IMG/VR virus record: IMGVR_UViG_3300028888_000116 | Coordinates: 10,224 to 74,223 of that record | Length of the DNA: 64,000 bases | Reading direction: 5' to 3' (one strand) | DNA from: a virus | Lineage: Duplodnaviria; Caudoviricetes | Part shown: positions 1 through 19,235 of the stretch, one piece after another | Numbering within the stretch: position 1 is the stretch's first letter | Layout of the letters: every line of letters starts with the position of its first letter | Made by a program: the position numbers and the translations under genes | The notes under the pieces: generated by a model | Seen by the model: only the letters and a program-made list of their open reading frames with translations | Database searches by the model: none | Told to the model about the DNA's origin: nothing

Positions 1-1700
1 GAATTTCTATCTTGTGGCATATATAATCCTTTTAAGCCAGGGAAAGGGTTTGATACTCCGCCAAAAAATTGGCCAATTTGTGATACCGTACAACTATTTA
101 AATTAGTGAATTGGTCTAAAATTAAATATGTTGGCTTTGTTTCATCTCCCAATATATGTTTTAACGCATTTAAATTTTGAGTTCTCCATTCACTTTGTGC
201 GTTATTTCCCATTATATATGTTAAATCTAATGAACGGGTATTACCATTTCCACTTAAACCAGGTCTTATATAAGCGACTGGATATGTGTCCCAATCCCAA
301 TTATCCCAATATTCAGTTATACTTTCTCTTGAATCACTACTATATCTAAATCTAGGTATATCATAAGCTACTGTACTGCCCTTGGGCAGATTATTTATAT
401 CAAGCTCCCCAAGGGCTATAGGCGAGAAATCTGATAAATCACTTTGAGTATAATTAAATGGTTCAAAATCAGAAGAAACCCAACCAGTATAATAAACATC
501 ATAATTTTCATTACTAGATGTTATTCTAAGTGCGATATATGTATCATTTCCATATTTACAGCTATAACATTCAACTGGAGCTCCATTTCCTTGTGTCCAA
601 TAATTATTTAAAACTCCATTTGCTTGATTCAAAAGAACATCAAAGCTATAAACATTTGAAGGGCCTCTAATTAAAAAGTGCCCATAAGAATATGTTTGCT
701 CTTGTGAATTATAATTATTAAAAATCATATATTGGCCTTTTGTTTGAGTATTTCCCAAATAAAGATTTGCTACCCAAACGGTATCATTTTCTGATACAAC
801 TCTGGCCTCTTCAAAAACTGCTTTTTTAGAAACACCTCCACCTAAAACATCAAGTGATAATTCATCTTTTTTGAATATGAAAGTGTCTTTTGGAATATCC
901 TCTCCGTTAAGAGTAAAATCCTGAGTTATTTTCCAACAAGTTCCTATTTTATAATTTGAAAAATCAGATGGCGGAGCTGTAAGAGGTCCAGCATATTGAA
1001 TAACTTTATTATTTTCAAAATCTATGTTATCTTCTAATAATTGATTTATTGCATCAATATCATCTTGAAGAGCTGAATCCACATCAGCTCTTTCTGAAGC
1101 CTCAGCATCAATCGCATCAGATAAATCAGAGTCAGCTCCTTGTCTTGCTGATTCTTCTGCAATTATTGCATCAGATAAATCTGAATCGGCAGATTCTCTA
1201 GCAGAAGTCTCAGCTGATATAGCATCAGATAAATCAGAATCTGCATTTTCCCTATTTGTCGCTTCAGCTTCAATATTATCTTGAAGTGTTATATCAGCAT
1301 TCTCTCTGGCAGTTTCTTCATCATTAATGAATTTGTCAACTTCCATAGTTGAATATGTATTTAATCTAACTTCTTGATAAGTATTTCCACCAGGCAATTT
1401 AATAAAAAGAGAATTGACTTTCCTATTCTGATATGTTGTAGAGTCATTCTTGATTAAAAATACTGAATAATCAGCGGCATTCTGATTCAAACTTGAAACT
1501 TTATCAACTTCACCTTCATAATGGAGAGCTTTTACTCCTTTATTGTAAGCATCTTCACTTCCTACTGGGATTAATTCTCCATTATATTTTTCATAGATAG
1601 TTTTATTTGTCTTATTGAAAACGAAAACTCTATCTGGTATATAATCGACTAAGAATTCAATACTATTAGAATCAGTAGTAATATTTTTTACAAATTCCAT
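1..1700 (-). CDS. Tail fibre-like virion protein, 3' end beyond the window edge (>=566 aa)
   Basis: Not in the ORF track. Hand translation from ATG at 1700 (MEFVKNITTDSNSIEF...) stays open to position 1. It has 18-aa coiled-coil repeats (AE..AR..ADSDLSDAI) followed by an aromatic/Gly-rich region. A variant late motif ACTATTTA lies 5 nt before the ATG. Confidence 0.7.
   Translation of the reverse strand, partial: MEFVKNITTDSNSIEFLVDYIPDRVFVFNKTNKTIYEKYNGELIPVGSEDAYNKGVKALHYEGEVDKVSSLNQNAADYSVFLIKNDSTTYQNRKVNSLFIKLPGGNTYQEVRLNTYSTMEVDKFINDEETARENADITLQDNIEAEATNRENADSDLSDAISAETSARESADSDLSDAIIAEESARQGADSDLSDAIDAEASERADVDSALQDDIDAINQLLEDNIDFENNKVIQYAGPLTAPPSDFSNYKIGTCWKITQDFTLNGEDIPKDTFIFKKDELSLDVLGGGVSKKAVFEEARVVSENDTVWVANLYLGNTQTKGQYMIFNNYNSQEQTYSYGHFLIRGPSNVYSFDVLLNQANGVLNNYWTQGNGAPVECYSCKYGNDTYIALRITSSNENYDVYYTGWVSSDFEPFNYTQSDLSDFSPIALGELDINNLPKGSTVAYDIPRFRYSSDSRESITEYWDNWDWDTYPVAYIRPGLSGNGNTRSLDLTYIMGNNAQSEWRTQNLNALKHILGDETKPTYLILDQFTNLNSCTVSQIGQFFGGVSNPFPGLKGLYMPQDRN
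1060..1330 (-). repeat. 54-bp (18-aa) degenerate coding tandem repeat
   Basis: GCATCAGATAAATC recurs at 1114, 1168 and 1222 (period 54), encoding repeated ADSDLSDAI units. Confidence 0.85.
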
Positions 1701-1711
1701 AATATTAAATA

Positions 1712-1755
1712 GTACTTTTCTTAAGGTTTTCATTATATTATAAATATAGGAGATT
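1712..1755 (+). promoter_or_regulatory. Class E (early-type) promoter plus RBS
   Basis: GTACTT-N18-TATTAT-AAATATAGGAG. The 25-mer 1731-1755 is identical to the reverse complement of 22356-22380. Confidence 0.7.
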
Positions 1756-1760
1756 GCTCT

Positions 1761-2276
1761 ATGAGATTTGATATAAGTATCTTAAATGAAGAAGAAAGAG
1801 ATGAAGCATTAAATATTGCTACTGAAATTTCTATGGCAGCGATGGAAATGGATTTTGAAAAAGTAAGGATTCAACTCGATTCTATTCAAGAGATATTTGA
1901 CGACCATTATTCTAAAATTGAGAATAAGCTTCGTGCAGAAGAGCATAATAACTTCCTACAACTCATAGAAAAAAATGAAAATGGTGGACAGGACACTTTA
2001 ACAATCCCAAAACATAGGGGAAAATTTTATTGGCCGATTTTCAGAAAAGATATTATGAAAGAAACTGAAAAGGCATTCGGTATTCTTGATTTGGAAGCTA
2101 CAGAAGAAATGCGACAAGAATCATTGAAGAAATGGAAATCAGAGCCAATTCATTGGTTACCAAAATCAAAAATAATCGTTTACCAAGGTCTTTATTTCAT
2201 TCCATCTGATTATTGCCAGATTTCTTATATGGATAAATTTAAAAGTAGCTATATTATAAAAACATTTAATATTTAA
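1761..2276 (+). CDS. Hypothetical protein
   Basis: 171-aa ORF with an AGGAG RBS and phage-typical codon use. Confidence 0.8.
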   Translation: MRFDISILNEEERDEALNIATEISMAAMEMDFEKVRIQLDSIQEIFDDHYSKIENKLRAEEHNNFLQLIEKNENGGQDTLTIPKHRGKFYWPIFRKDIMKETEKAFGILDLEATEEMRQESLKKWKSEPIHWLPKSKIIVYQGLYFIPSDYCQISYMDKFKSSYIIKTFNI

Positions 2277-2308
2277 AAAATAAGGTCGGGTAAATCCCGA
2301 CCTTTTTT
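2275..2308. terminator. Bidirectional intrinsic terminator
   Basis: AAGGTCGGG-taaat-CCCGACCTT flanked by A and T tracts, between convergent genes. Confidence 0.85.
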
Positions 2309-2309
2309 A

Positions 2310-3119
2310 TTACCAAAATTTAAATATAAAATGTCCACCTTGATAAATCAATTCTAAAGAAATTAAAGAAATCCCAGCAGAATATAACATTGTAGTTCCA
2401 GTTCTAATATCACCTTGAGAAAAAGGAATAATAGAACAAACAGCAACACCAATTGGCGCCAATGGAACTAGGAAATTTCCTAAAGTATAAAGATTTGAGA
2501 ATCTTCTGTCTCTCTCATAATCTAATTTCTGATGTTCATTCCATTCAAACTCTAAAAGCTCTTTTTCTTTTTTAATTATTTCAACTTCTTCTAGAGCTGC
2601 TGAAAATAATTCAATTGCATTCTCAGTATCACCTTTATTACTTAGAAGTGCCTTGTTCGCTAGATTCAGACAATCCGATAACTGATTTGATAAATTCTTC
2701 ATCGAGCTCAGCTCTTCTAATACTGAGGTCGAATAAGTCATTGATAGTTGAGTTTGCCAATTGTAAAGATTCTTGATAAGTTTTAGTAATTGAGGCAAGC
2801 TCATCGAGTTTGGATTTGTATTGTTTATTAAGTTCTTCAGCTGCTCCGATACTTCTTCTGGCATCTTCGTTATGTCCGATTGCATTGTTGAGATTATTAA
2901 TTCCAGTTTCAATTTCAGTTCCTGCTCGGCCTGCTGACTGTCCAATAGTGTCGATTCGTTGCTCAATTCTTCCGCTATTTGATTCAGCTCGTTTAAATCT
3001 GGTTGCATATCCTGCCCAAAAACCGAGTGAGAAAATGATAAGAATAGTACCAGCGATAATAGAATACTTAATGATTTTTTTCTTGTCAATTTCCATTGAA
3101 AAATTTTTGATTTTAACAT
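2310..3119 (-). CDS. Signal-peptide, coiled-coil protein with C-terminal hydrophobic segments; outer spanin-like candidate
   Basis: 269 aa. Basic then hydrophobic N-terminus ending SHSVFG/QD, long helical middle, hydrophobic C-terminus ending FIFKFW. Overlaps 2638..3123 in another frame. Confidence 0.6.
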   Translation of the reverse strand: MLKSKIFQWKLTRKKSLSILLSLVLFLSFSHSVFGQDMQPDLNELNQIAEELSNESTLLDSQQAEQELKLKLELIISTMQSDITKMPEEVSEQLKNLINNTNPNSMSLPQLLKLIKNLYNWQTQLSMTYSTSVLEELSSMKNLSNQLSDCLNLANKALLSNKGDTENAIELFSAALEEVEIIKKEKELLEFEWNEHQKLDYERDRRFSNLYTLGNFLVPLAPIGVAVCSIIPFSQGDIRTGTTMLYSAGISLISLELIYQGGHFIFKFW

Positions 3120-3123
3120 TCAT
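2638..3123 (-). CDS. Single-TM coiled-coil protein; i-spanin (Rz)-like candidate
   Basis: 161 aa. KKK, then a TM (IIAGTILIIFSLGFWAGY), then a long amphipathic helix. AGGGG RBS upstream. Confidence 0.65.
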   Translation of the reverse strand: MNVKIKNFSMEIDKKKIIKYSIIAGTILIIFSLGFWAGYATRFKRAESNSGRIEQRIDTIGQSAGRAGTEIETGINNLNNAIGHNEDARRSIGAAEELNKQYKSKLDELASITKTYQESLQLANSTINDLFDLSIRRAELDEEFIKSVIGLSESSEQGTSK

Positions 3124-3143
3124 TTTCGCCCCTTTTTGATATT

Positions 3144-3161
3144 CATTTAGTCTACTAATTA
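3144..3161. promoter_or_regulatory. Back-to-back class L (late-type) promoter motifs
   Basis: ACTAATTA at 3154-3161 (+, 3 nt before ATG 3165) and ACTAAATG at 3151-3144 (-, ahead of the nested pair). Confidence 0.6.
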
Positions 3162-3164
3162 AAT

Positions 3165-3701
3165 ATGATAAGAGACTTCCAAAAGAGACTCGCTATAAAA
3201 CACGGAATTATAGCAAGGAAAATATTAGATAATAATATCGAACTCGAAGGTACTCCACAAGACTGTATAAGAATTAGATATAAAAAGACTAGAGATGGAG
3301 ATACAGAAACTTGGGAAGTATTGATGGCCGATATTCAAAATATCTATTTTCCACCTCTTGACGATGTACCTTTCAGAAAATTAGAAGATAAGGGAGAAGG
3401 TAAATATAAAATAACTTCTCTCGTTAATTCATTCGCTGATGAAAATGTGGATATTTATAAATTAATATTCACTCATAAATCTGATTTAAATGTCGGTGAC
3501 CTAATTATAAGAGTTTTTCACGACCCCGATGTAAAGGAACCAATTATTCTTGTTTTTGAATTAACTGAATTATTGGGAACATTTGGGGAAATGCTTGAAA
3601 GTCAGAGTGCAAATTCAGTTTTGGCAACTAGAGATATACCAGATGAGATAGCTGAAGTTGTTTCCGAAATGGCAAAGAGACGATTAAAATTAGGATTTTA
3701 A
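3165..3701 (+). CDS. Putative virion structural protein (neck/head completion-like, unassigned)
   Basis: 178 aa, first gene of the tail tube/baseplate block, class L motif upstream. Function is from context only. Confidence 0.55.
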   Translation: MIRDFQKRLAIKHGIIARKILDNNIELEGTPQDCIRIRYKKTRDGDTETWEVLMADIQNIYFPPLDDVPFRKLEDKGEGKYKITSLVNSFADENVDIYKLIFTHKSDLNVGDLIIRVFHDPDVKEPIILVFELTELLGTFGEMLESQSANSVLATRDIPDEIAEVVSEMAKRRLKLGF

Positions 3702-3740
3702 ATCAACTAAATATATAAATTTTAATGGAGAATTAGAAAT

Positions 3741-4469
3741 ATGGCATACAATAATAAAATGATTGATTCTATGATGGCATATAGCGCTGATGCCTTCAAG
3801 AATATGTATGATATTTATATCGACTGGCCTGGTTCATTATCGGCTGCTGAAAATAATCAGAATCTTATTTCTGTAAGGGCTAAAGGAATAAAAATACCAG
3901 ACCTCGGTGCTGCAACTTATGATAGACACTACCACGGAAATAAAATTGCTCTTCCAAAACCAGAACAAGAATTTGAAAGAAACGTTGAAATCACATTTAC
4001 AATGGATGCCGGATTCCAATATTATCAGAACTTCTGTAAATGGCTTTCAGTTGTAGTTGATGCGGTAAATGGTGGAACGTCAAACTGGCCAGCATTAAGA
4101 GGCACCCTTTATGCTGTACCTTTAAAAGGAATTTTCTTACCAGCTGGGTATGAATCAAAAACTGGAGCTGACGGTACAATAACTAATAATATTACAGCTG
4201 CTACTAATTCAAAAGTAATTAATCCTAGTTATATTAATGGAACACCAGATGGAAGTGATAAAGCTGGTGCACTTAATCTTGGTAAAGTAAAAGATTTTGG
4301 TTGGAAATTCAGCGAATGTTGGGTTTCAAAAGTAACAGCACCTGATTTTGCTGTTGATTCATCAGAGCCATTGGAGTTTACTGTTACATTCCAGTTCTTG
4401 GATTATGATGCTCCTGCATTTGGTGGATTCAGAAACTCACAGAACCTTGAATTAGGCGGAACAAATTAA
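3741..4469 (+). CDS. Tail tube protein (T4 gp19-like fold)
   Basis: YDIYIDWP...VRAKGIKIP...YHGNKIALP...VEITFTMD..FQYYQNFCKW...FTVTFQFLDY follows the gp19 pattern. ACTAAATA at 3706-3713, GGAG RBS. Confidence 0.75.
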   Translation: MAYNNKMIDSMMAYSADAFKNMYDIYIDWPGSLSAAENNQNLISVRAKGIKIPDLGAATYDRHYHGNKIALPKPEQEFERNVEITFTMDAGFQYYQNFCKWLSVVVDAVNGGTSNWPALRGTLYAVPLKGIFLPAGYESKTGADGTITNNITAATNSKVINPSYINGTPDGSDKAGALNLGKVKDFGWKFSECWVSKVTAPDFAVDSSEPLEFTVTFQFLDYDAPAFGGFRNSQNLELGGTN

Positions 4470-4493
4470 TAAATTAATTTAAATTAAAAATAT

Positions 4494-4522
4494 AAGGGTA
4501 CGAGAAATCGTACCCTTTTTTT
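4494..4522 (+). terminator. Intrinsic terminator after the tail tube gene
   Basis: AAGGGTACGA-gaaa-TCGTACCCTT followed by a T tract. Confidence 0.85.
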
Positions 4523-4542
4523 ATTCCACTAAATATATTATA

Positions 4543-6030
4543 ATGGCAGATGTTAAAATCGACGAAAAAGAATTAGAAAAGAAAGAGTTTTGGGATTGGG
4601 GAAAGGACGAGAATGGTAACGTCCTTGGTGGCTCTTCAGCTCTAATTGATAATTTAAAAAAAGATTATGATGATGGACTCAAAGACCAAAGAGAAAAAAT
4701 CAATGAAAAATATATAGACGACACCGTAAGAACTAAAGATAAAGATAGCTGGAATTGGTATAATGCTCAATGGAGAAATGATTGGCTAGATGGTATTGAT
4801 AATGCTATAAATAATTTTAATACAAGTGGATATACCAATGCATTAAATAGTTTTATAAATGATACAAATAAAGAAGATGACTCTATACAAAGCGGCATCA
4901 ATAATGCTGTTAAAAGCCTAAATGATAAAATTACTAATGGTTGGGTTAAAGATTATAATGATTGGTTTGATTCACTTGATAATTGGACAAAATTTTTAGA
5001 TAATGATTATTACCAAAACATATTGACAAATACTGGAAATTTTGCAAATAACTGGTTAACAAATGCGGTAATATCTGATTGGCTTGGTATGGGTCCTATA
5101 AATGAAGGTGAAAGTGGTTTATTAAAAATATTAAATAATTCTGTAAAATCACGTAGTAAATTTGTTGTTACAAATATTAAAAATGAAGATAAAAACAAAT
5201 TTGAAGAAAATTATAGTATTATAAATCCATATATAAAAAAGATGTTTGAAGCTGGACCAGATTTATTTTCAAATAGTTTTGATATATTTTTTATAGTTGA
5301 ATCATTAGATGGAAAAAAAGATTTTATTGGGCCAAGCGATATTAAATTTGGAGAAACAGATAAAAATTTAAATGCTCTTATATCTAATTATAATGATTTA
5401 ACCGTTAGAACTGCTTCAATTTCAATACCTCAAAGAATGCAATCATCATATACTCAAAAGATTTTAAATTTATCTACTGAAATGGTTTCTCATTCAGTAG
5501 AATTTGAGAATAAAGCTGAATTAAAAATTGATTTAGATAGTAGCCTTTCAGTAATAGATTTAATAAATTCATTATCGGGATTACCTGATTATACTAAAAA
5601 ATCATCTATAGCTGATTCTGCGGAAGAGAATACAACAGAAAAAGAAAAATATACTTTTAGTAAAAATAATAATGATGATGAACCTACTTTTGGAGCATCA
5701 TATCATAATTCAAGTATAAAAAGATTGGATATTTATGTAAACTCAAGAAGCTTTAAAAATATTCATCATTTATATTGGAATCCGAATGCTGAAGGTTCAA
5801 TAAATAATATTATTTATGTTTTTTATAATTGTAAATTTTTAGGAACAGACTCAATTTCTTTTTCAAGGGATTCTGTTGATGTTCAAAATAAATCATTTCC
5901 TTTTATTTTTGAGCATTTATATGAAGTATATAAAATGTATTCTGATATTGCTCCACAAGAAGGTCAACAATTAATAATGGATAATTTTAAAGATACCAAA
6001 AATGATGTTGAATTTATAACTCATTTATAA
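4543..6030 (+). CDS. Baseplate/tube-initiator-like protein with C-terminal tube-fold domain
   Basis: 495 aa. C-terminal half VRTASISIP...FLGTDSISFSRDS..FIFEHLY parallels the tube protein and 6041..7648. ACTAAATA 7 nt before the ATG. Confidence 0.55.
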   Translation: MADVKIDEKELEKKEFWDWGKDENGNVLGGSSALIDNLKKDYDDGLKDQREKINEKYIDDTVRTKDKDSWNWYNAQWRNDWLDGIDNAINNFNTSGYTNALNSFINDTNKEDDSIQSGINNAVKSLNDKITNGWVKDYNDWFDSLDNWTKFLDNDYYQNILTNTGNFANNWLTNAVISDWLGMGPINEGESGLLKILNNSVKSRSKFVVTNIKNEDKNKFEENYSIINPYIKKMFEAGPDLFSNSFDIFFIVESLDGKKDFIGPSDIKFGETDKNLNALISNYNDLTVRTASISIPQRMQSSYTQKILNLSTEMVSHSVEFENKAELKIDLDSSLSVIDLINSLSGLPDYTKKSSIADSAEENTTEKEKYTFSKNNNDDEPTFGASYHNSSIKRLDIYVNSRSFKNIHHLYWNPNAEGSINNIIYVFYNCKFLGTDSISFSRDSVDVQNKSFPFIFEHLYEVYKMYSDIAPQEGQQLIMDNFKDTKNDVEFITHL

Positions 6031-6040
6031 GGGATAAAAG

Positions 6041-7648
6041 ATGGCGGACAAAACTACAGAGATTGATAAAAATACAGTTAAAGATTCTCTCAAAAAAGAT
6101 AAAGAATATGGAAAGACAAATTATCCTTTTGATGCGTATACATCTTATGATACTTATATGGCTCTTAAAGAAGAAGATAGGAAAAAGGAAGATGCAAATA
6201 GAGCTGTTGAATTTAGTGCATATTTTGAAGATTTTATTAAAAAACTTGATGATGATGCTGCTGATAAATTTAAAAAGAAATTAACAGAATTAGGTGCCGA
6301 TTTTAAAGAAGGAACAAAATTTTCAGATAGTGTAAGTAATATTATGAATGCTGATGATTTATTAGCACTTATTCAATATTGCTCTGATGAAGCTAATAAA
6401 ATGGTAGCTAAAGGAACTCCAACTGATGAAAAATCAATGGAAGAAGCTCAAAATATATTAAAAGAAGTATTATTAAATGATTTACAATATATAGCTCAAT
6501 ATTATACAGATAAAGAAAGATTTTTTAATAGAGAAGATTTTAATAAATTTATGATGGATTTAATTGCTGAGTTGAAAAATGTAAAATTTGCACCAAATAT
6601 TAAATTTAAAGATGGACTTGAAGCTGGATTAAATGCTGAGTTGAAAAATGTAAAATTTGCACCAAATATTAAATTTAAAGATGGACTTGAAGCTGGATTA
6701 AATGCTGAGTTTATTAATATATCTCAATTAGAAAATCTCTCAACTACTATTCATAATAATATTATAAGTAATCTTATAAAATTTGTTGAGACGGAATTAG
6801 TTAAAACGCCAGAAGATAAAATAGGAATTAAATTAGATAAAGATGGGCATACAAATCTCAATCAGAGAAATTATGAGAGTATGGGAAAAGTTGAAGAAAA
6901 TGTACTCTTAAATAGATTAATTTCAATGATGCCAGATTTCTCTCAAAATCTATTTACTATTGGATTTATTGGTATTAATGATGATTACAAAAATTTATCT
7001 GATTTTGCTTTGGACTATTTTAGAGATTTTGATGAAAATAGTGATGAGTTAACTGGAGAAAAATTTAATCATTTAAATAATAATATAGATGGATTTTATA
7101 CCAGAGTTTCAAGTTTTGAAATCCCAATGCCAAAAGCTCATACTATTCAATATAAATTCTTTACTAGAACTATAACAAAATTATCAGCTGGAATTGAACA
7201 GCCACATACTATAAATATTACTTTTAATGCTGACCAAAATGGGTATATCATAAATCATTTCCAAAGAATGGCTGGACAATTCAATGCATATCCGAAAAAA
7301 GATGAAACTAGAGAAATTTCTTTAGGAGCATTACAATCAATGTTTACTCCTGGCGGATTCATTGGTAGAGATAAAACTTTAAATATCTTTATTAAATTTA
7401 ATGATGTAATTGGTAAAGACCAATTTACTGGAAGAATCTATAATAATGATGATAATTACCAAAGATATGATTTTTCAAATGGCTCTTTAAAAGATTTCCA
7501 AAATAAAAACGGATATAATGGATTTTTTTTAGAAGATGTACAATTTCTTGGTTTTGATAACTCTATTGATTTTAATAGAGATTCAGCTAATCCAATAGAA
7601 ATGACTGGAAAATTCAGATTCAACCATCTTTATCGTATAGTTGCTTAA
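6041..7648 (+). CDS. Baseplate/tube-initiator-like protein with C-terminal tube-fold domain
   Basis: 535 aa. YTRVSSFEIP...INITFNADQ...VQFLGFDNSIDFNRDS...FRFNHLY is paralogous to the previous gene. Confidence 0.55.
   Translation: MADKTTEIDKNTVKDSLKKDKEYGKTNYPFDAYTSYDTYMALKEEDRKKEDANRAVEFSAYFEDFIKKLDDDAADKFKKKLTELGADFKEGTKFSDSVSNIMNADDLLALIQYCSDEANKMVAKGTPTDEKSMEEAQNILKEVLLNDLQYIAQYYTDKERFFNREDFNKFMMDLIAELKNVKFAPNIKFKDGLEAGLNAELKNVKFAPNIKFKDGLEAGLNAEFINISQLENLSTTIHNNIISNLIKFVETELVKTPEDKIGIKLDKDGHTNLNQRNYESMGKVEENVLLNRLISMMPDFSQNLFTIGFIGINDDYKNLSDFALDYFRDFDENSDELTGEKFNHLNNNIDGFYTRVSSFEIPMPKAHTIQYKFFTRTITKLSAGIEQPHTINITFNADQNGYIINHFQRMAGQFNAYPKKDETREISLGALQSMFTPGGFIGRDKTLNIFIKFNDVIGKDQFTGRIYNNDDNYQRYDFSNGSLKDFQNKNGYNGFFLEDVQFLGFDNSIDFNRDSANPIEMTGKFRFNHLYRIVA
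6566..6711 (+). repeat. Perfect in-frame 69-bp tandem duplication
   Basis: The unit starting GCTGAGTTGAAAAATG occurs at 6566 and 6635, with a partial third at 6704, giving AELKNVKFAPNIKFKDGLEAGLN twice. Confidence 0.95.
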
Positions 7649-7659
7649 ACTAAATAAAT

Positions 7660-8322
7660 ATGGATAAGAAAGAACTGGCAGAGTTCGAGTTCAATGGAAC
7701 TCAATATCTTTTTAATTTAGACCCAGCAACTGGAAATTTATTCTATCTCAAAAATGTAACATTTGAAGATATGCCACCAAATGAGGCTGCTGGAAGTGAT
7801 AAAGCTACTTCTGAAAAGAATCAGGCTACTCTCACACAAATATTAAGATATAGAGTTAAATCTGTAAAACTCGATAATACAATTGGAATTGAATTTGATA
7901 ATAATAGAATGCTTTTGCCAGGAAATCCTATCTGTGTTACTGGAATAAAAGAGTCTCATAATTTTACTATAGAATGGGTTGAAGATTCTTTTTTCAGAGT
8001 TCAAAAATTCCATAAAGAGTGGATAAGTCATTGGTTTCAGAATAAAACATTACAAGATGGCGTAAAAGGAAAATTTGTTTCGTTTATATTTGAAGTATTC
8101 TATTTAAATAATGAAGGTGGAATTTCTCCAAAATTATCACCTAAGCCAGCTTATACGATTAAACTTGACCATTGTGCGCCAATAGATTTATCAGATTTTA
8201 GTTTCTCTTATGATGAACAAGATAATGGAAAATCATTTGTTGGTAAATATGTTGCTAAAAATATAGAAATTATTGATAGCGATGAAGGTCCGAATGAAGA
8301 TAAAGTTTTAAAATATATTTAA
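7660..8322 (+). CDS. Tube-fold baseplate protein (gp48/gp54-like candidate)
   Basis: LRYRVKSVKL...FTIEWVEDS.FRVQKFHKEW...CAPIDLSDFSFSYD tube-like pattern. ACTAAATA 3 nt before the ATG. Confidence 0.5.
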   Translation: MDKKELAEFEFNGTQYLFNLDPATGNLFYLKNVTFEDMPPNEAAGSDKATSEKNQATLTQILRYRVKSVKLDNTIGIEFDNNRMLLPGNPICVTGIKESHNFTIEWVEDSFFRVQKFHKEWISHWFQNKTLQDGVKGKFVSFIFEVFYLNNEGGISPKLSPKPAYTIKLDHCAPIDLSDFSFSYDEQDNGKSFVGKYVAKNIEIIDSDEGPNEDKVLKYI

Positions 8323-8339
8323 AATATGAGGTGTAATAA

Positions 8340-8783
8340 ATGAATTCAATTTTAATAAATGATATTGAACAATTGAAGTCAGGCGTAGAAGATATTATCT
8401 CATATCAAGATATAAATTATCTTGGAGTAGATAAGAATGATACTATTACTGTTAAAAATGAAAATTGTTTATTACAGAAAATGAAAATCTGGCTACAATC
8501 TGATATAAATGACTACCATAGAAATCCTAAACTTGGTGGAGTTATAGTTGATAACGCTAGAAAAATGAGATTAACTAAGGAAAATGCTGGTAAACTAAGA
8601 GAATTGATTAAGACAGAATCGGAACTCTTATTTAAAGATATTTCCATTTATGATATTTCAGTAATCCCAAATGTAAAAGAAAGACGATGGGAAATTAAGA
8701 TTTCTGTCATTGACCCAGTAACTAAAATTGCTGATTCTTCAATGTATGATAATCAAAATTCTATTGCTATTTATACGGAGTAA
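8340..8783 (+). CDS. Baseplate wedge protein, gp25/GPW-like
   Basis: KMKIWLQS...YHRNPKLGG...LRELIK...ISIYDISV...WEIKISV matches the gp25 pattern; it precedes a gp6-like gene. Confidence 0.7.
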   Translation: MNSILINDIEQLKSGVEDIISYQDINYLGVDKNDTITVKNENCLLQKMKIWLQSDINDYHRNPKLGGVIVDNARKMRLTKENAGKLRELIKTESELLFKDISIYDISVIPNVKERRWEIKISVIDPVTKIADSSMYDNQNSIAIYTE

Positions 8784-8785
8784 AA

Positions 8786-11368
8786 ATGAAAACATTTGTT
8801 TATGATGCAATAAAAGAAAGACTTATTAAAAGATTAAAATTGAATGCTGATGCAGCAACAGTTCTTGATGATTCAGCTTTTACTAATATTCTTGATGTTG
8901 TTTCAGAAGGTTTCGCTGAAAATGCAAGATATACTGAATATCTTTATCTTGAAAAGAAGTGGGATACAGCTAAAAATATTTCTTCTCTTTTATCAATGGG
9001 AGCATTAATCGGAAGAAAAAGATATAGACCAGAATCAGCTACTGGAATTATAATTGTTTCCCATACTGACGATGATAATAATAATAGATTGGCAAATTAT
9101 GGAAGATACTTTTTTGATTTAAACGAAGAATCAGATTATGATGAAATAGATAAAAATGAAGATGCTGATTATATTAAAAAGAGAGCATTGGTACCTTGGC
9201 TGAACTCTTCACTATATACAATTCCCGAAGGCACTGAATTTGTATCTAACTCAGGTATTTCATTTTTCGCTACAAAATCAGTAAAGATTAAAAAGCTTGA
9301 AAAGAAATATTCTGAAATATCTTCTGACGAAGGTACTCTTAAAGCATTCTTAGCTAGAGGAGGCTGGGACGGAATTAAATATTTGAAAGTTCCAGTTATT
9401 CAAGGTATTAAGAGAAAAGCTCAGGTTGGAGTTTCTACTGGAGAAAGAAATCAAGCATTCAAATTTGAAGCAAGAAATATTGAAGCTGGAAATAACTCAA
9501 TTTCAAAGAAATATTTTTATATTGAAGTAACCGAAAAAGATGGAACTACAACAAAGTGGTTTGAGCTTCCAATGATTCAATTAGCCGGACCTTATGATAG
9601 AGTATTTGAAACGGAACTTTCAGCTGATGGCTCATATATTATAATTAAGTTTGGTAATGGATATTCTGGTAGAATTCCTACCAAAGATTCAGTTATTGAT
9701 TTGAATTATATTGAAACTGCTGGAAAGAGTGGAAACATAGAGCAGAACTTCCAAATAAATACAATTAAATTCCCAGCTGGATATTCATATATAGACCCAA
9801 GAACTAAGAATGAAAGAGAATTCCTATCTTGTACAAATATTGCTCCAATATCTGGCGGTAAAGATATTGAATCAAGAGATGAATTCAGAAAAGATGCTCC
9901 TAGTTCATATCTTAAATACTATGCAACTTCAGTAAAATCAAATTATGAGAAAAAGGTTTATGAAAATTCACCTTATTCTTTATTGAATGCTAAATGTTTT
10001 ATTTCTTCTGATTTTACTGCTGAACAATTGGATAATTCTATTGATGATGAAATTGAAGAAGAAGTACTTAATCAGCTTTCTTTAATTTCCAATTCTTTAA
10101 ATATTACAGCGATTAAATCAAATGGCCAATCAATGAATGAAGTTGAATCTGAATTCTTTATCAATTCACTTTCTGAATCGCTCGCTGAAATTAAAGGACC
10201 AAATGATGCTTTGAAATATTGCGCCCCTTTAATGATTAAAATGGCTCCATCTATTTTAATCAAAACTTCTGATTTAACAGTTACAGATGATGCTGTAATT
10301 AATGGAGTTTCTCAAATTATTCAAAGTGAATTCGCAGTATTCCAAAAAGATTTTAAAGATGATTTCGTTTCTTCAAGGATTATTCACTTGGCTTCATTAT
10401 TTAATTTTACAGATTCAGTAGAGTTAACTATTGATGCAATCGCTGATGTTGATTATGATAATATTGAATTACTCTGTACAGAAAAAGATTCAATTCCTTT
10501 AATCTCAGTTCCTTTTAAATTTTCTGATATTTTCTCAAACGATAAATTCAAAAAAGGATTTAAAAATTTCAAAGACGGAAAGAAGTTTAATTTAAGAGTT
10601 GACTTGAGAGTAAAAAATGGTGCTCCTAGTTCTCTTGAAAGAACATTATTATTAATTGATAATAGAGAAAAATTAGAAGCCATCAAAGATGCAAAACGAG
10701 GCGTTATTGATGAAAATGGATTAGCATCAAGTCTTTTCCAAAAGATTCGTTCTGAAAAGAGTGATACTGAGTTCTTCCTTTATGAAGAAAATAATAGTAG
10801 CTATAAGAATAGAAGAATGAGAGTTGCCCAATTCCCGATTCTGATAAATAATGTTTTAACAAACAAATTTATTGATAATCTTTTTAGTTTTGAAAATTCT
10901 CCATCAGAAATTAGACCTTTTGAGCAAGATAATAATGGTGATAATAAGATTTTACTTTCATCTATTGTTGATGTAAATCTTCAAGAGCCAATTAAAGGAA
11001 ATGAAATTGGTACATATTGTTATAGAAGAAATACTGAATATATAAATTATTTTGATATTTCATATAATGAAGAGTTTAATGATATTGATAATTACGCCAA
11101 TGGATTTGTTTTAATTCCTTGTGATTATATCAATTCTTTAGGAACAAATAATGCTACATTGATTACTACTGGATTAACTCTTGGACAAATTCAGCAAAGG
11201 AACGAAGAATATATTAAAGAGATAAAACGATTGTTGAATGATTATCTTGATATTAAAGTTAGAGCAGAACCTAGAGCTGATGTAATAACTCCTTTAAAAT
11301 GGAATGAAATTGTTTTTGTTGATGATGATGATATTACAGTAGAAAAAGAAACCGTCATAAAAGAATAA
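8786..11368 (+). CDS. Baseplate wedge protein, gp6/baseplate J-like
   Basis: 860 aa. N-terminal L...WDTAK..SSL...G...YRP.SATG, central IKFGNG..GRIP, and GG.DIES.DEFRK.AP motifs. Confidence 0.8.
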   Translation: MKTFVYDAIKERLIKRLKLNADAATVLDDSAFTNILDVVSEGFAENARYTEYLYLEKKWDTAKNISSLLSMGALIGRKRYRPESATGIIIVSHTDDDNNNRLANYGRYFFDLNEESDYDEIDKNEDADYIKKRALVPWLNSSLYTIPEGTEFVSNSGISFFATKSVKIKKLEKKYSEISSDEGTLKAFLARGGWDGIKYLKVPVIQGIKRKAQVGVSTGERNQAFKFEARNIEAGNNSISKKYFYIEVTEKDGTTTKWFELPMIQLAGPYDRVFETELSADGSYIIIKFGNGYSGRIPTKDSVIDLNYIETAGKSGNIEQNFQINTIKFPAGYSYIDPRTKNEREFLSCTNIAPISGGKDIESRDEFRKDAPSSYLKYYATSVKSNYEKKVYENSPYSLLNAKCFISSDFTAEQLDNSIDDEIEEEVLNQLSLISNSLNITAIKSNGQSMNEVESEFFINSLSESLAEIKGPNDALKYCAPLMIKMAPSILIKTSDLTVTDDAVINGVSQIIQSEFAVFQKDFKDDFVSSRIIHLASLFNFTDSVELTIDAIADVDYDNIELLCTEKDSIPLISVPFKFSDIFSNDKFKKGFKNFKDGKKFNLRVDLRVKNGAPSSLERTLLLIDNREKLEAIKDAKRGVIDENGLASSLFQKIRSEKSDTEFFLYEENNSSYKNRRMRVAQFPILINNVLTNKFIDNLFSFENSPSEIRPFEQDNNGDNKILLSSIVDVNLQEPIKGNEIGTYCYRRNTEYINYFDISYNEEFNDIDNYANGFVLIPCDYINSLGTNNATLITTGLTLGQIQQRNEEYIKEIKRLLNDYLDIKVRAEPRADVITPLKWNEIVFVDDDDITVEKETVIKE

Positions 11369-11484
11369 TCTTTAAATTAGGATTATACTAATTTCCTAAT
11401 TATTTTCTTTTGTGATGGCGATGTTTTCAGATTTTTTCAAATTCGCGGGATTGAAAATTTCTTATACATTTACCAACATAGAAA

Positions 11485-11529
11485 ATAAGAAAGGGTGTAG
11501 AATATTTAAAACTACACCCTTTTCTTATT
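11485..11529. terminator. Long bidirectional terminator hairpin
   Basis: AATAAGAAAGGGTGTAG-N11-CTACACCCTTTTCTTATT (about 17-bp stem, one bulge) between convergent units. Confidence 0.75.
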
Positions 11530-11558
11530 AAATTACTATTAAATTATTATTAAATTAT
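11526..11558. repeat. Three 11-bp AT-rich direct repeats
   Basis: TATTAAATTA(C/T) at 11526, 11537 and 11548. Confidence 0.8.
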
Positions 11559-11854
11559 TATTTATCTTTTTAAAAGGACCGATTCTTTTTAAGGCTTACA
11601 TACAATAATAAATGCTTGATGAATCCGAAAATTCAACAGAATCTGGTGGGAGGCGAGCTGACCAATTACTTCCTTTCCCATTAATTTTTCCTTTCGCAAG
11701 CTCTTTTCATCATACTAATATTATAAAACTAAAATTATAAAATCATTTTAATTCGGCGGGCCTCTTGTCATTTAAACCTCCAATAATGAAGCAGCTCTAG
11801 AATTGCTTCAAAGATAAATTTTACCATAAATATTTTTTAAGATAGGGAGCTACC

Positions 11855-12103
11855 CTATACGAAAACTTCTTCCCATAAGCAAGGAATAAATCTTATATTT
11901 TCAATATAAGGCATCCTGCTATTCATCAAAGATTGTATTGGCACTCTTTCTTGTCCATATATTTTTCTGTAAATATCTTCTTCTGAAATTGGATTTGCTA
12001 TTCCATCAATAAGGATAGTTTTTGAATCTTCGTGGTACTGATGAAGATTACTTATAGTAATCAAATAATATCCTTTTTTGATAAGCAAAGAATTGGGATT
12101 CAT
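11855..12103 (-). CDS. Hypothetical protein
   Basis: 82 aa. Start overlaps the upstream stop (TAATG), GAGGA RBS, small hairpin at the 3' end. Confidence 0.7.
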   Translation of the reverse strand: MNPNSLLIKKGYYLITISNLHQYHEDSKTILIDGIANPISEEDIYRKIYGQERVPIQSLMNSRMPYIENIRFIPCLWEEVFV

Positions 12104-12300
12104 TACTCGTCCTCGTAATATTCAACAGAGATGATTTTCCAGTCGTTGAACTCATCTTCATCTTCAAATTGAGCCTGGTCGAAAGCCTTCATCTTAGCTT
12201 CCTGTTCTGAATTTACCAAACTTCCATCTACAAAATAATCATCAGTTCCGTAAGACTGACCATCTAAAAATTTTTCGATTGTTACCTTGTATGTTCCCAT
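12103..12300 (-). CDS. Hypothetical acidic protein
   Basis: 65 aa, GGAG RBS. Confidence 0.75.
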   Translation of the reverse strand: MGTYKVTIEKFLDGQSYGTDDYFVDGSLVNSEQEAKMKAFDQAQFEDEDEFNDWKIISVEYYEDE

Positions 12301-12380
12301 ATTTTCAAATCTCCAATGCTAAATTTCTACAGTTGGCGCCATTCGTAGATTTTCTCTGACTTTCTTATTTATTTGAAAAT

Positions 12381-12557
12381 TTATTTATCAACATTTTCTA
12401 AATTAAAAGTATTTGGAGTAATTCCAAGTTGCTGATTTAATAATTCTTCCTGTACACTTTGAAGAACAAATGCTCTTTCAATAAATTGAAGTTCACAATA
12501 ATCTAAATCTTGCTTGTCTTTTATTTTTTGAAAAACTCTTTTTGCAAAATCATTCAT
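12381..12557 (-). CDS. Hypothetical protein (58 aa, below the ORF-track cutoff)
   Basis: GAGGAG RBS, then MNDFAKRVFSKIKDKQDLDYCELQFIERAFVLQSVQEELLNQQLGITPNTFNLENVDK. Confidence 0.75.
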   Translation of the reverse strand: MNDFAKRVFQKIKDKQDLDYCELQFIERAFVLQSVQEELLNQQLGITPNTFNLENVDK

Positions 12558-12564
12558 TGTTAAC

Positions 12565-15138: not shown

Positions 15139-15156
15139 ATTAAATTAGTAAATTTT

Positions 15157-16239: not shown

Positions 16240-16304
16240 AATTATTTAGTCATATAAAATTAAATAGAGTTTACCCAAAATGTGGATATTATGTGGAAAA
16301 CTTG

Positions 16305-18386
16305 TTAACTAAAATTCATTCCTTGTTGAGCATTAAAGATTCTTTTCCAATTATCTTGTGAAATATAATCTTTATTCATAAGAGAATTTAAAAGATTTCC
16401 TTTTGTTCTTAAGTTCTCAGCTTGGATATAATCAATAGAATTCTTATAACAGAATGTATAAGTTCTACTCATAGCATCTTTACCGGGTCTGTGGATTCTT
16501 CCCCTACTCTGTTCATAAACAGTATAATTATAAGTCTTTTCAAGATAGCATTGGAATTTACATTCAGTAAGAGTTACAGAAGTATTCATAATATTTATAG
16601 AAGCGATAATAATTTTATGTTTATTATTATTCTTAAATTCTTTTATCGCATTTGAAATATCATCTTTACCCATTCCAGCTTGAATTACTATTGGGTCATA
16701 TTTTTTTAATGAACTCTTTAAACAGTCAGCCGTTTTTGGGTGATAATACCAAACAATTCCTCGTTCTTCTGATTCATCAACTCTATCTATTAAAACATCT
16801 TTAAGAGCATCAAATTTTGTTGCATCATTTTGGTATTTATAACTCTTTATACTTTTCTGTAATTCAGATGGAAATTTCTCAAATGTCGGAGTGTTCACAA
16901 TACATTCGGGATTGTCTACTGCTAATTGGAATATTCCAAACATATTCATAATAGAATCTTTAACTGTAGCTTCTCCAGCTAATTTTCTAGCCTGGGCTGC
17001 TTTTAATTCTTCTTTTGTGAACTCTTCATATATTTTTCTTTGTAATGGACTCATATCAAGATAAATCGTTGGAACGTCATAATCCATCGGCAAATCAAGA
17101 CATTCATTCATCATTCTTTTTGAGCCATATACTGATAATAATATTTTATTTAATTCATTTATTTTTTCAAGATTCCAAGTTTCTTCATTAATAGCATATT
17201 TTGAAAATCTATTACCTAATTGAACATAATCAGTAAGCCAATCTTCATAGGATTTTCCATTAACTAATGCTCTATCCAAAATTTTAAGAGGCTGATATAA
17301 TTTTTCATATTTATCTGCTAATGTTCCAGTAAACTCATATCTATATTTGAAATATGTAATATTCATATTCAGTAATTGAGAACGTCTAGAACCAGGATTA
17401 TTTATTGTATGAACTTCATCAAGAAATAATCCACCATTATGTCCCTGTAGCCATTCTACTATTGGGATAGACGATTCCCGATATTTTGTTTTTTCACTTG
17501 GATGTGATTTTGCTCTTAAGTTTTTTAATTCATCAGTAATCTTTTTATATTCTTTATCAGTCTTTAATAATTCTTCAGCTTCATCTGCTCTTATTCCTAA
17601 TAATTTTTTAGCAGCTTTAAAATTCTTTCTATATTCTTGTTCTAATTTTACCTGAGTTTCAATTTGTTTTGGTAATTTAGATGGAATATGAGTTTTATCA
17701 TAATAATAATTATTTACTGACTTAAAAGAATCATAAGTCATTATAATAATTTTATATGGATATTTTTCAATATTAAAAATATCGCGGTCTTCAAAAGATT
17801 TTTCAGAAATAGAATTCAAAACAAATATTTCTTCATCTTTAAGAGTTGTTCCAAACTTTAATAATTCATCTTTAAGATTATAAACTCCAACTCCAGTTGA
17901 GAAGATTAAACATTTATCTATTTTCTTATAATAACGAAGATTCTCAATTAAAGCAGCAAGACAGTAGCTTTTGCCTAGTCCCATTTGCCAGTTGAATAAA
18001 AATCTATTCTGTCTTAATGCTCTACTTATATCTTCCTTTTGATAATTTTCAAATGGGTGAATACCCTTTAAAGGTGGGAATTTTAATAAATCTTCTTTAA
18101 ATAATATACGTTCTTTTGATTGTTCAAGTTCTTTTAGATTATCTAAATATAATTGAATATTTCTTGCTTCTAATTCAGAAAACTCTACATTAAAGCCATT
18201 ATATTTTAATTCTAACTCTAAATCATAAGCATCAAATATAGATTTTTCCCAAAGCTTTGTTTCAAAATTAAAGCTACAACCATTTTCTTTTAGGGTTTCG
18301 TATGCTCTTTGGAATTCAGATTTTGAGTTTTCTCTTATTTTAATTTCGAGTTTTCCAGTACTATTATTACAAAAGAACTCAATCAT
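16305..18386 (-). CDS. SNF2/SWI2-family helicase-like ATPase
   Basis: Motif I FNWQMGLGKS, motif II LFLDEVH, motif III FTGT, motif VI QSRGRIHRPG. Confidence 0.85.
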   Translation of the reverse strand: MIEFFCNNSTGKLEIKIRENSKSEFQRAYETLKENGCSFNFETKLWEKSIFDAYDLELELKYNGFNVEFSELEARNIQLYLDNLKELEQSKERILFKEDLLKFPPLKGIHPFENYQKEDISRALRQNRFLFNWQMGLGKSYCLAALIENLRYYKKIDKCLIFSTGVGVYNLKDELLKFGTTLKDEEIFVLNSISEKSFEDRDIFNIEKYPYKIIIMTYDSFKSVNNYYYDKTHIPSKLPKQIETQVKLEQEYRKNFKAAKKLLGIRADEAEELLKTDKEYKKITDELKNLRAKSHPSEKTKYRESSIPIVEWLQGHNGGLFLDEVHTINNPGSRRSQLLNMNITYFKYRYEFTGTLADKYEKLYQPLKILDRALVNGKSYEDWLTDYVQLGNRFSKYAINEETWNLEKINELNKILLSVYGSKRMMNECLDLPMDYDVPTIYLDMSPLQRKIYEEFTKEELKAAQARKLAGEATVKDSIMNMFGIFQLAVDNPECIVNTPTFEKFPSELQKSIKSYKYQNDATKFDALKDVLIDRVDESEERGIVWYYHPKTADCLKSSLKKYDPIVIQAGMGKDDISNAIKEFKNNNKHKIIIASINIMNTSVTLTECKFQCYLEKTYNYTVYEQSRGRIHRPGKDAMSRTYTFCYKNSIDYIQAENLRTKGNLLNSLMNKDYISQDNWKRIFNAQQGMNFS

Positions 18387-18622: not shown

Positions 18623-19228
18623 TTAATTTATTTGTAATATTTGTTCTAACTTTGGTAGATATAGGTCTATATCTCGTATAATTTGGGCTATATGTTTAGT
18701 TAATCTGATTTTTGGGTTTGATAATCCACCTGAAGAGTTATAAATATTTCGCCAAACTCCTTTTCCTTTTTCTCCTGTAAACTTAAATATTGACATATTT
18801 TCTGAATCTAAATCTTCCCACACTCCTTGATAAAAAAATGACGCATCATCAGAATAAAATTTTGCATCACAGTTATGTACAACTTTTGATAGAATATTTA
18901 AAACTTCAGAATGTTTAAGTTGAGGTAAGTTTGATAAATTCCATTGTCCTAATTGAGTTTCGGGATTATAAAATCTAATAACGACTGTATAATATCCATT
19001 TGGTGTATTTACTCCTAAACCCTGAGCTGATATAAAATCTTCAGCTCCAAAAGAAGATTTAGCATAGAAAATTGCTTCATAATATTTCTGTTTTGAATTC
19101 CAAGTAGACTTTGCTACATCAATTCTTGAATCACCTTCATTTTCTCTTTTATCAAGATGTTTCTGAGTAAAATTAGAAATTGCTGTTTGAGTTAGAGAAT
19201 CTAGAGTGGCTTCAAATAAAAGTTCCAT
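18623..19228 (-). CDS. Hypothetical late protein (putative internal head protein)
   Basis: 201 aa. ACTAAATA 4 nt before the ATG; starts MELLFE/A. Confidence 0.7.
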   Translation of the reverse strand: MELLFEATLDSLTQTAISNFTQKHLDKRENEGDSRIDVAKSTWNSKQKYYEAIFYAKSSFGAEDFISAQGLGVNTPNGYYTVVIRFYNPETQLGQWNLSNLPQLKHSEVLNILSKVVHNCDAKFYSDDASFFYQGVWEDLDSENMSIFKFTGEKGKGVWRNIYNSSGGLSNPKIRLTKHIAQIIRDIDLYLPKLEQILQIN

Positions 19229-19235
19229 AAATTAT

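Follow-up and report, generated by a model that had tools for sequence, protein, structure and literature searches.

Can one stretch of phage DNA specify, in two frames of the same strand, two different proteins that are both sent to the host envelope, and what might such a pair do there? The question is raised by a locus in the IMG/VR virus record IMGVR_UViG_3300028888_000116 (Duplodnaviria; Caudoviricetes), of which positions 10,224 to 74,223 were analysed; this stretch of 64,000 nucleotides (nt) is called the window, and positions are given in its own coordinates. It is part of a 74-kb record from a giant phage of the sheep gut, with ~29% G+C, that is estimated to be ~23% complete, and its DNA is carried mainly by sheep and bovine gut metagenome runs. 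On its minus strand two genes, A (3123 to 2638, 161 amino acids (aa), protein P0002) and B (3119 to 2310, 269 aa, P0001), are arranged with A wholly inside the span of B and the B frame +1 relative to A. The original prediction, made from the letters of the window alone, took them for an unusual two-component spanin. The reading we favour is that of a dual-coded envelope pair which acts late on the host envelope and is functionally spanin-like, and we put the probability of that full reading at roughly 0.55; that the locus is a genuine case of dual coding is, judging from the comparison of relatives, next to certain.

The elements on which the argument first depends are as follows.

2638..3123, minus strand: gene A, with a short K-rich N-terminus, one predicted transmembrane helix and a long predicted coiled-coil helix
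2310..3119, minus strand: gene B, with a predicted signal peptide, a helical region, a conserved core, a weakly hydrophobic C-terminal hairpin and a GGHxxFKxW end
3129..3133, minus strand: Shine-Dalgarno (SD) core AGGGG common to A and B, 5 nt 5' of the ATG of A and 9 nt 5' of that of B
3117..3123, minus strand: dual start ATGaATG, with the ATG of A at 3123-3121 and that of B at 3119-3117
2638..3119, minus strand: dual-coding overlap of 482 nt, under purifying selection in both frames

The start region on the minus strand reads AAAAAGGGGCGAAA-ATG-A-ATG, and two starts 4 nt apart behind one ribosome-binding site are thus present as had been claimed. Among the nested relatives the starts of the two frames are always 2-5 nt apart behind one SD, with codons that differ among lineages: ATGaATG in the window, L006, L008, L018, L019, L013 and L023, ATGTG in L002, L010 and L020, TTGTG in L014 and L017, and GTGtATG in L030. 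The SD is kept in the start regions of relatives, there as GGAG. From these sequences we infer dual initiation from the two starts.

Both frames are open in 12 lineages (the window, L006, L008, L018, L019, L002, L010, L013, L014, L023, L020 and L030) and also in the partial copies L011 and L017, with B always +1 to A in nested lineages down to ~25% identity in B. In nine full-length and two partial lineages A terminates at B codon column 154-160, and every indel spans a multiple of three nt. The overlap is likewise kept in L023 (A 161 aa, B 268 aa), in L020, a 295-kb contig of 38% G+C (A 136 aa from GTG, B 233 aa from ATG), and in L030 (A 136 aa, B 247 aa). When synonymous codons are resampled for either protein using the codon usage of the window, 10-18 stops are expected in the other frame in five lineages and 6-16 in L023, L020 and L030, and an outcome of zero stops occurred in 0 of 3000 and 0 of 2000 simulations each, respectively. 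As controls, 12,863 codons of other window genes gave 0.067 stops per codon in the +1 frame and 0.165 in the +2 frame with a longest open run of 113 codons, and the free-standing A and B genes of two further relatives, L027 and L028, hold 17-27 stops in their alternative frames. The open double frame is far beyond chance, and the possibility raised with the original prediction, that homologues might keep only one frame open, is answered by relatives that keep both.

Close relatives of the window (90-95% alike, from runs X3 and X4) differ from it by indels at 2831-2835, 3008 and 3074-3087, namely paired +1/-1 indels 4 and 13 nt apart and a 12-nt insertion, with both frames always preserved.

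Divergence within the overlap is low at all three codon positions and fits neither single-gene pattern; the part of B outside the overlap shows the usual order, position 3 > 1 > 2. Substitution classes were counted along a tree, with ancestors reconstructed by parsimony, for the 133 overlap codons free of gaps, which gave rates of 0.130 for changes non-synonymous in both frames (NN), 0.325 for those non-synonymous in A and synonymous in B (NS) and 0.255 for those synonymous in A and non-synonymous in B (SN); the corresponding rates in the non-overlapping part of B are 0.579 (synonymous) and 0.207 (non-synonymous). Relative to this synonymous rate, sites silent in A change 0.44x as fast (bootstrap 95% confidence interval 0.33-0.57) and sites silent in B 0.56x (0.44-0.70), and neither ratio reached 1 in 2000 bootstraps, with short branches only giving 0.43x and 0.55x. 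Pairwise Nei-Gojobori proportions of synonymous differences (pS) are 0.21-0.58 in the neighbouring 178-aa gene and 0.28-0.64 in the non-overlapping part of B, and within the overlap 0.11-0.43 in the B frame and 0.065-0.31 in the A frame; they are lower in the overlap than in the remainder of B in 10/10 pairs for both frames, and lower than in the 178-aa gene in 10/10 pairs for the A frame and 9/10 for the B frame. Compared with a random draw from the mutational opportunities, replacements in B that are silent in A are more conservative (mean BLOSUM62 -0.87 vs -1.20 expected, P=0.008), as are replacements in A that are silent in B (0.51 vs 0.15 expected, P=0.004).

The ratios NN/NS = 0.40 and NN/SN = 0.51 were considered as measures of omega and dropped, because the classes differ in codon position and hence in radicality. 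This has to be counted against our reading, as changes at position 2 are more radical than those at position 1 and the confounded NN/NS could mimic selection on B; for A the confounding of the NN ratio runs in the conservative direction. It is accordingly the lowered synonymous rates, the open frames and the BLOSUM62 test that carry the case for selection, and purifying selection acts on both frames. Dual coding is with this as firmly established as sequence comparison allows.

The alternative that each stretch has one real product, either A followed by a short B from an internal methionine (Met140) or B only with the second frame a by-product, has some points in its favour: gene-caller annotations of L006, L007 and the P0010 contig break the locus in two (155 aa + 112 aa), Met140 is conserved, and naive ratios of non-synonymous to synonymous differences (pN/pS) for the A frame are 0.6-1.1. 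It is largely refuted, however, and highly improbable in our view, as 12 lineages are free of the 6-18 stops that would be expected, neither start codon has been lost, the signal peptide of B is conserved and by analogy with free-standing B homologues would be needed, synonymous rates are reduced and replacements conservative in both frames, and A is free-standing elsewhere. Callers sometimes use Met140 as the start of a 112-134 aa "second gene", and the B-family matches of 88-134 aa are C-terminal pieces that were called in this manner where the caller had picked frame A upstream; the family is consistently mis-annotated, with one frame only annotated or B split.

What the two frames encode can be described with the following features.

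3004..3072, minus strand: predicted transmembrane helix of A, about residues 18-40, from hydrophobicity and approximate insertion energy
3015..3119, minus strand: predicted signal peptide of B, residues 1-35, with the predicted cut after V-F-G, on the same bases as the N-terminus and transmembrane helix of A
2700..2702, minus strand: conserved internal Met140 of B (SMKNLS), sometimes taken as a start by gene callers
2310..2660, minus strand: core of B, residues 154-269, the sole part homologous to free-standing B genes

Protein A has one strong N-terminal hydrophobic helix (Kyte-Doolittle 2.0) with an insertion energy of ~-2.4 to +0.2 kcal/mol over five A proteins, on a scale that gives approximate values here and below. 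Its AlphaFold2 model is one continuous helix over residues 14-158, with a predicted local distance difference test score (pLDDT) >90 over 90-150, and hydrophobicity and predicted helix together bear out the single N-terminal transmembrane segment and coiled coil that had been noticed from the sequence. By prediction A thus matches the plan of an inner-membrane spanin (i-spanin), an N-terminal transmembrane anchor with a helical coiled-coil domain; it is predicted to lie N-in/C-out with the rod facing the periplasm, although the flanking charges are nearly balanced. A has 23 close homologues, with 22 A-type proteins of 141-166 aa being 47-67% identical, and 286 in a wider search.

Protein B begins with a Sec-type signal, made up of a K/R-rich start, a 13-residue hydrophobic core and a V-F-G|Q-D site, and an xFA|Q(D/E) site of the signal-peptidase-I type is kept across lineages. 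The first 35 residues contain no Cys, as is the case in six other B proteins, and a lipobox, [LVI][ASTVI][GAS]C, was found in none of the 23 B-family proteins checked. Behind the signal the body is helical and is followed by two weakly hydrophobic C-terminal stretches and the end GGHFIFKFW. The signal peptide without a lipobox Cys, the coiled coil and the C-terminal Trp were all part of the original prediction and are all seen, with a C-terminus that is only weakly hydrophobic: the Kyte-Doolittle values are 1.6-2.0 for the first stretch and <1.6 for the second, the simple-sum insertion energies are +1.5 to +10 kcal/mol, and the residues preceding the first stretch are more basic than the loop behind it. 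With this weak hydrophobicity and atypical flanking charge the stretches are ill-suited to a standard inner-membrane hairpin. The AlphaFold2 model of B has a mean pLDDT of 59.8, too low for a fold search.

Six close B-type homologues are 260-273 aa long and 49-76% identical, and the B profile found 63 proteins among 1.84 billion representatives. The full-length plan comprises a Sec-type signal, a variable helical region, the motif AL(I/L)SNK(E/D)DT (the core of the window protein carries ALLSNK(G/E)DT), a coiled coil, two hydrophobic stretches with Pro and Gly conserved across the family, and the C-terminal motif E(L/V)V(Y/W)xGG(H/K)xxFKxW. All the distant B homologues of 187-268 aa that were examined have an N-terminal signal peptide, which disposes of the suggestion that the long protein really starts after 2638. 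On these sequence features it is very likely that both proteins are targeted to the envelope.

How did one gene come to lie within the other? L027 and L028 are IMG/VR giant-phage records in which the two genes are adjacent and separate. In L027, A (3203-3613, 136 aa) is followed by B (3635-4198, 187 aa) with its own SD, and in L028 A ends at 3777 and B occupies 3779-4324; one family therefore holds both nested and separated layouts. The free-standing A of L027 carries the motif GRxxR...SxSxxIEQ just past its membrane helix and aligns with nested A over 30 columns (hhalign E 1.4e-4, probability 53%). Nested and separate B align only over residues 154-269 of P0001 (hhalign E 1.9e-13 with one sequence, 1.6e-27 profile to profile), and this homology starts within ~6 codons of the end of the overlap. 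The composition of B changes at the same place, with S+L+N+Q+T+E making up 69% of mature B within the overlap vs 41% beyond it, and both the S/L/N/Q-rich character of the overlap part and the asymmetry of an overprinting type that had been remarked on in B are confirmed.

Because the boundary of homology coincides with the end of the overlap and the overlap part of B is biased in composition, it is fairly probable that the signal peptide and front half of B were written over gene A, that is, by overprinting, and that the S/L/F-rich core of the signal is the transmembrane helix of A read in +1, in which case a signal peptide would seem to arise from the +1 reading of a membrane anchor. The reverse history, in which a nested ancestor was resolved by duplication, is less probable; nested forms span the deepest branches sampled, in a tree that is unrootable. 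Since both proteins also occur as ordinary neighbours, one family offers a chance to see how an overlap is born or resolved.

Turning to what the pair might do, a complex prediction of A (residues 40-161) with B (36-210) scored 0.51, with the best of 3 controls at 0.00. This is weak support: the mark for such scores is reached by 58/80 solved complexes and 2/110 mismatched pairs, and scores <=0.60 belong to only 7 of those 80 and to both of the mismatches that passed. Agreement between the runs is at least 22% of contacts, with a partner pLDDT of at least 76. It is reasonably probable that A and B work together.

The favoured reading can then be put as a chain of steps. One transcript ending at a hairpin at 2282-2304 would carry one SD and two starts, 4 nt apart and in different frames; ribosomes at the first start would make A, an inner-membrane anchor with a periplasmic coiled-coil rod, and those at the second would make B, exported by a cleavable Sec signal, with a front half that would come from the same 480 nt as A, ahead of an older conserved core. 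A single SD serving two starts that differ in frame and lie 2-5 nt from each other would be an easy way to hold partner proteins to the same transcript and at a fixed ratio. Pairing of A with B would probably run through the coiled coils, and the two would act on the envelope of the host at a late stage of infection, most likely in the last step of lysis, spanin-like without a lipoprotein. The pair is, by this analogy, probably an undescribed lipoprotein-free spanin-like lysis module, with topology, A-B binding and function all inferred. That it has a role in lysis we would rate as an even bet, and that it disrupts the outer membrane in particular as doubtful. A more detailed version is tentative and unlikely to hold in all its parts: the pair would be a lipid-anchor-free counterpart of spanins in giant gut phages and some diderm prophages (maybe of spirochetes), with A reaching out of the inner membrane and B, once cut by signal peptidase I, engaging the outer membrane or fusing the membranes via its weakly hydrophobic, Pro/Gly-containing C-terminal hairpin with the conserved aromatic end, with the front of B overprinted on A and one ribosome-binding site hard-wiring the ratio.

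The neighbourhoods of the pair in relatives are what brings lysis into consideration. In L028 a gene for an SLT lytic transglycosylase (33 bits, cut-off 21.3) with an N-terminal signal-like segment adjoins A in divergent orientation, and a Peptidase_C39_2 gene (34.9 bits, cut-off 24) lies directly 3' of B, followed by gp5-like baseplate genes. In L027 there is a class-3 lipase gene upstream, and a C39-like gene overlaps the end of B. In L014 the pair is directly followed, at 3316-3666, by a gene for a protein of 116 aa that has a charged C-terminus behind three hydrophobic segments and is holin-like by topology only and matches no Pfam or PHROG family. L030 is a prophage on a 131-kb contig of a metagenome-assembled genome (MAG) titled uncultured Treponema sp., and the membership of its copy in the family was confirmed by the broad B profile (E 1.7e-19); its genes run from one for an Mtd-like protein through those for a reverse transcriptase, a 269-aa product, a 117-aa protein with two transmembrane segments and DUF261 (78.9 bits) to the nested pair, beyond which lie a gene for a CI-like repressor in the opposite orientation, a transposase-like gene and the M23 and YidC genes of the host. 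This order suggests that the pair in L030 closes a lysis-like cassette, at a place where temperate phages keep lysis genes. A location in or beside a lysis cassette is seen in L028 and suggested in L027, L014 and L030, and is not found in the window clade.

Some further genes near the pair may be recorded here. At 3-3337 of L030, upstream of the lysis-like genes, the Mtd second domain (33.4 bits) in a 637-aa protein is followed by the reverse transcriptase (45.3 bits), a pair like that of a diversity-generating retroelement. The gene divergent from the pair in L023 (5292-5909, minus strand) weakly resembles PspA/IM30 (E 1.6e-4, 21.8 bits, below the 33.9-bit cut-off) and would be a membrane-stress-type coiled coil adjoining an envelope pair. 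The P0008 contig, from a giant phage with the pair, encodes a Flagellin_N + Flagellin_C protein ~4 kb upstream.

The window clade itself offers different neighbours, a tail tube gene (phrog_45), a baseplate wedge gene and a fibre-like 577-aa gene, and these lend themselves to an alternative in which the dual-coded envelope pair has a job other than lysis, be it superinfection exclusion, remodelling of the envelope for release or assembly, or a membrane-associated part in tail or fibre assembly. The embedding of the pair in a tail/baseplate module, the divergent promoter region that it has in common with structural genes, the gp5-like baseplate genes near it in L028 and the lack of a known function in the family would all agree with this. 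We nevertheless think it unlikely, given that wall-active or lysis-type genes adjoin the pair in L028, L027 and L030 and a gene of holin-like topology follows it in L014, that an exported protein is unlikely as a virion part, and that the lysis genes of T4 likewise lie beside fibre genes.

A bona fide two-component spanin, with A as the i-spanin and B as an outer-membrane spanin (o-spanin) held in the outer membrane by its hydrophobic C-terminus and rupturing or fusing that membrane after wall degradation, can be set against the same data. A has the architecture of an i-spanin, and the A family gives weak matches to five different Rz-like PHROG families (1-4 of 13 A proteins each, best E-values 0.01-0.23). 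B is the next gene after A in L027 and L028 or overlaps all of A (12 lineages), and it is a feature stressed for spanins that the o-spanin gene is invariably next after the i-spanin gene (PMC12894885); separated and nested layouts both occur, as in spanin genes (PMC6139136). Furthermore the pair follows holin-like and wall-enzyme-like genes in L030 and adjoins the SLT gene in L028, and C-terminal stretches that are atypical for an inner-membrane hairpin leave B an outer-membrane or fusion-loop role. On the other side, the lipobox Cys that defines an o-spanin is absent in 23/23 B proteins, several of which are without any Cys near the signal, there is no significant match to Rz/Rz1 or other homology, B is a large helical protein, and the nesting is the wrong way round for a spanin, A lying inside B. 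Nor does B fit a unimolecular spanin, having no lipobox and only weak C-terminal stretches. Because the lipobox is missing throughout and no family matches, the pair is not filed as a spanin; it is not a member of that family and may still work like one, and we regard a true spanin as decidedly unlikely. Of the spanin-like role first proposed, the architecture of A, the position of B next downstream in relatives and the lysis-type neighbours stand, and the position of the pair within a tail module in the window speaks against it.

The two adjacent starts behind one SD also recall the dual-start motif of lambda S, where S105 and S107 are initiated behind one ribosome-binding region and give two lysis proteins at a set ratio. 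Similarly, in T4 the protein RI binds the holin T. It is conceivable on such grounds that A and B are a lysis-timing pair, a holin with its antiholin or regulator, in which the C-terminal stretches of B would form the lesion or gate, A would bind the periplasmic domain of B and the common start would set the ratio. Both proteins have predicted periplasmic helical domains and the weak predicted binding (0.51) described above, and the signal-bearing SLT enzyme of L028 would need regulated release. This is quite unlikely, however, with hydrophobic stretches in B that are weak, separate small multi-transmembrane holin-like genes already adjoining the pair in L014 and L030, and no similarity of the pair to T, RI or any holin family.

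Several observations weigh against the favoured reading of a late-acting, spanin-like envelope pair. No lysis family matches significantly, the E-values for the Rz-like PHROGs being the best obtained, and the pair is flanked by tail-fibre-like and tail-tube genes both in the window and in the relatives closest to it. A search of the 74-kb record for SLT, Amidase_2, Phage_lysozyme and the L028 peptidase gave no endolysin, which shows little with ~23% of a genome. DUF261 and the 116/117-aa membrane proteins of the relatives are without an established lysis function; DUF261 has no similarity to the C39-like peptidase of L028, and a literature search on DUF261 and on BlyA/BlyB found nothing usable. 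B has no lipobox, and its C-terminal stretches are of marginal hydrophobicity. Contigs from RNA libraries on 2659-3124 show neither strand nor translation and could be DNA carry-over. Finally, the B-family profile A3 matches only 1/301 genomes of the genus of the Treponema MAG.

Two candidate signals would frame the locus as a transcription unit.

2282..2304, both strands: bidirectional intrinsic-terminator hairpin of 9 pairs, 6 of them G-C, with T runs on both strands, 5 nt past the stop of B
3144..3151, minus strand: ACTAAATG, a candidate late-promoter-type motif ~20 nt upstream of the starts

Four terminator-like sites were found in the region scanned, against 0.3 expected, and with the hairpin placed after the stop of B the stretch 2310-2637 would belong to the transcription unit. 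The ACTAAATG motif stands back to back with a like motif of the divergent 178-aa gene, and its site is kept as ACTAAAT, ACTAATT, ACTAACT or ACTAGAT in L006, L008, L018, L019 and L013. Since motifs of the class ACTARWTW are not enriched across the whole window (35 found vs 42.8 expected from shuffles), the site at 3144-3151 is a lead only. Many of the ACTARWTW copies lie directly upstream of start codons. Metatranscriptome contigs also fall on the genes neighbouring the pair; contigs reveal no strand, ends or level, and nothing was drawn from them. In metatranscriptome run X2 the exact contigs end at 3124 on the side of the pair and restart at 3181 on the side of the 178-aa gene, with the divergent promoter region 3125-3180 uncovered; contigs cannot show RNA ends.

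As to the host, the signal-bearing SLT enzyme of relatives makes a diderm plausible. A link through clustered regularly interspaced short palindromic repeats (CRISPR) was looked for by comparing window positions 1-20000 with the 301 genomes, and none was found: the seven that were inspected of many near-exact matches of 25-46 nt had no flanking direct repeats and are not spacers. The label "Campylobacter sp." on the MAG with P0008 is a binning label and is not evidence of a host.

Other parts of the window do have counterparts in the genus of the Treponema MAG. The intergenic stretch 18502-18547, between the minus-strand genes 16305..18386 and 18623..19228, is matched by at least 10 of its genomes over 26-67 nt at 79-100% identity, for example over 27 nt at 100% in G223 and 32 nt at 97% in G138; the G138 match has no flanking direct repeats and is thus not a CRISPR spacer, and the stretch may be a regulatory or RNA element or an attachment-type site. 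An HNH/NUMOD3 gene and an adjacent stretch (14899-15138 and 15272-15478) have 76% and 71% DNA identity to two G123 contigs, and a DUF5662 gene (19236-19781, matched over 19459-19701) shares 68-70% identity with five further genomes of that genus. These DNA matches indicate that related phage genes are present in assemblies of that genus.

Searches of the databases placed the family no nearer to anything known. Nothing significant was found for A or B in Pfam and PHROGs, profile searches of the PDB returned only generic coiled coils (keratin, vimentin, GCN4, Lpp), and the ESM Atlas gave only unnamed viral clusters with every structure row at a TM-score <0.5. There was no match to GenBank phages, either by blastn with window positions 1-8000 or by tblastn with P0001, the B of L028, P0069 and P0040; scans of IMG/VR with P0001, P0002, profile A1, P0069 and P0048 gave no relatives, and only the broad profile A3 reached L027-L029 there. 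Genome contigs searched with profile A1 gave no match. Full-text literature searches found no paper describing such a pair.

The locus is a clean natural case of long same-strand dual coding, in which ~160 codons that make up a whole gene are kept in both frames to ~25% identity. It has been reported that 91 of 677 surveyed phages of Gram-negative hosts are without a recognisable spanin (PMC6139136), and a lipoprotein-free pair in the spanin slot would be a candidate for how lysis ends in such phages.

Among known systems the embedded spanins, such as lambda Rz/Rz1 and T7 18.5/18.7 (PMC6139136), come closest in layout, as they too are same-strand envelope pairs with one gene nested in the +1 frame, one partner that is a type II inner-membrane protein with a periplasmic coiled coil, and an association with lysis genes, which in our case is seen in relatives. 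Here, however, it is the anchor protein A that is nested and B that is larger, the starts are 4 nt apart behind one SD, and B would have a signal of the signal-peptidase-I type, no lipobox, a helical body and a weak C-terminal hairpin, without homology to those proteins. The nested spanin of LambdaSo is a normal lipoprotein system. With the separated and overlapped spanins (T4 PseT.3/PseT.2, P2 LysB/LysC and phiKZ gp141/141.1; PMC12894885) the pair shares the A-then-B order of L027 and L028, whereas B is not a lipoprotein. B resembles the unimolecular spanin gp11 of T1 in joining an N-terminal export signal to C-terminal hydrophobic segments, although gp11 has a lipoprotein signal and one clear C-terminal transmembrane domain and B has neither. 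The starts a few bases apart behind one ribosome-binding region are a likeness to lambda S105/S107, which are however near-identical proteins read in the same frame, whilst A and B are unrelated proteins from different frames.

Outside lysis pairs the nearest parallel is phiX174 E inside D (reviewed in PMC8227390 and PMC3494269), also a same-strand overlap under selection in two frames with a younger part that is biased in composition; unlike E/D, the overlap described here, of ~480 nt, covers a whole gene and begins at a common initiation site, and its apparently new part would supply a predicted signal peptide through the +1 reading of a transmembrane helix. The survey of 2018 did not see embedded spanins with nested and separated layouts in one family (Kongari et al. 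2018, PMC6139136). With its nested anchor, common initiation site, signal of the signal-peptidase-I type, and nested and separated forms within one family, the pair departs from every described spanin layout.

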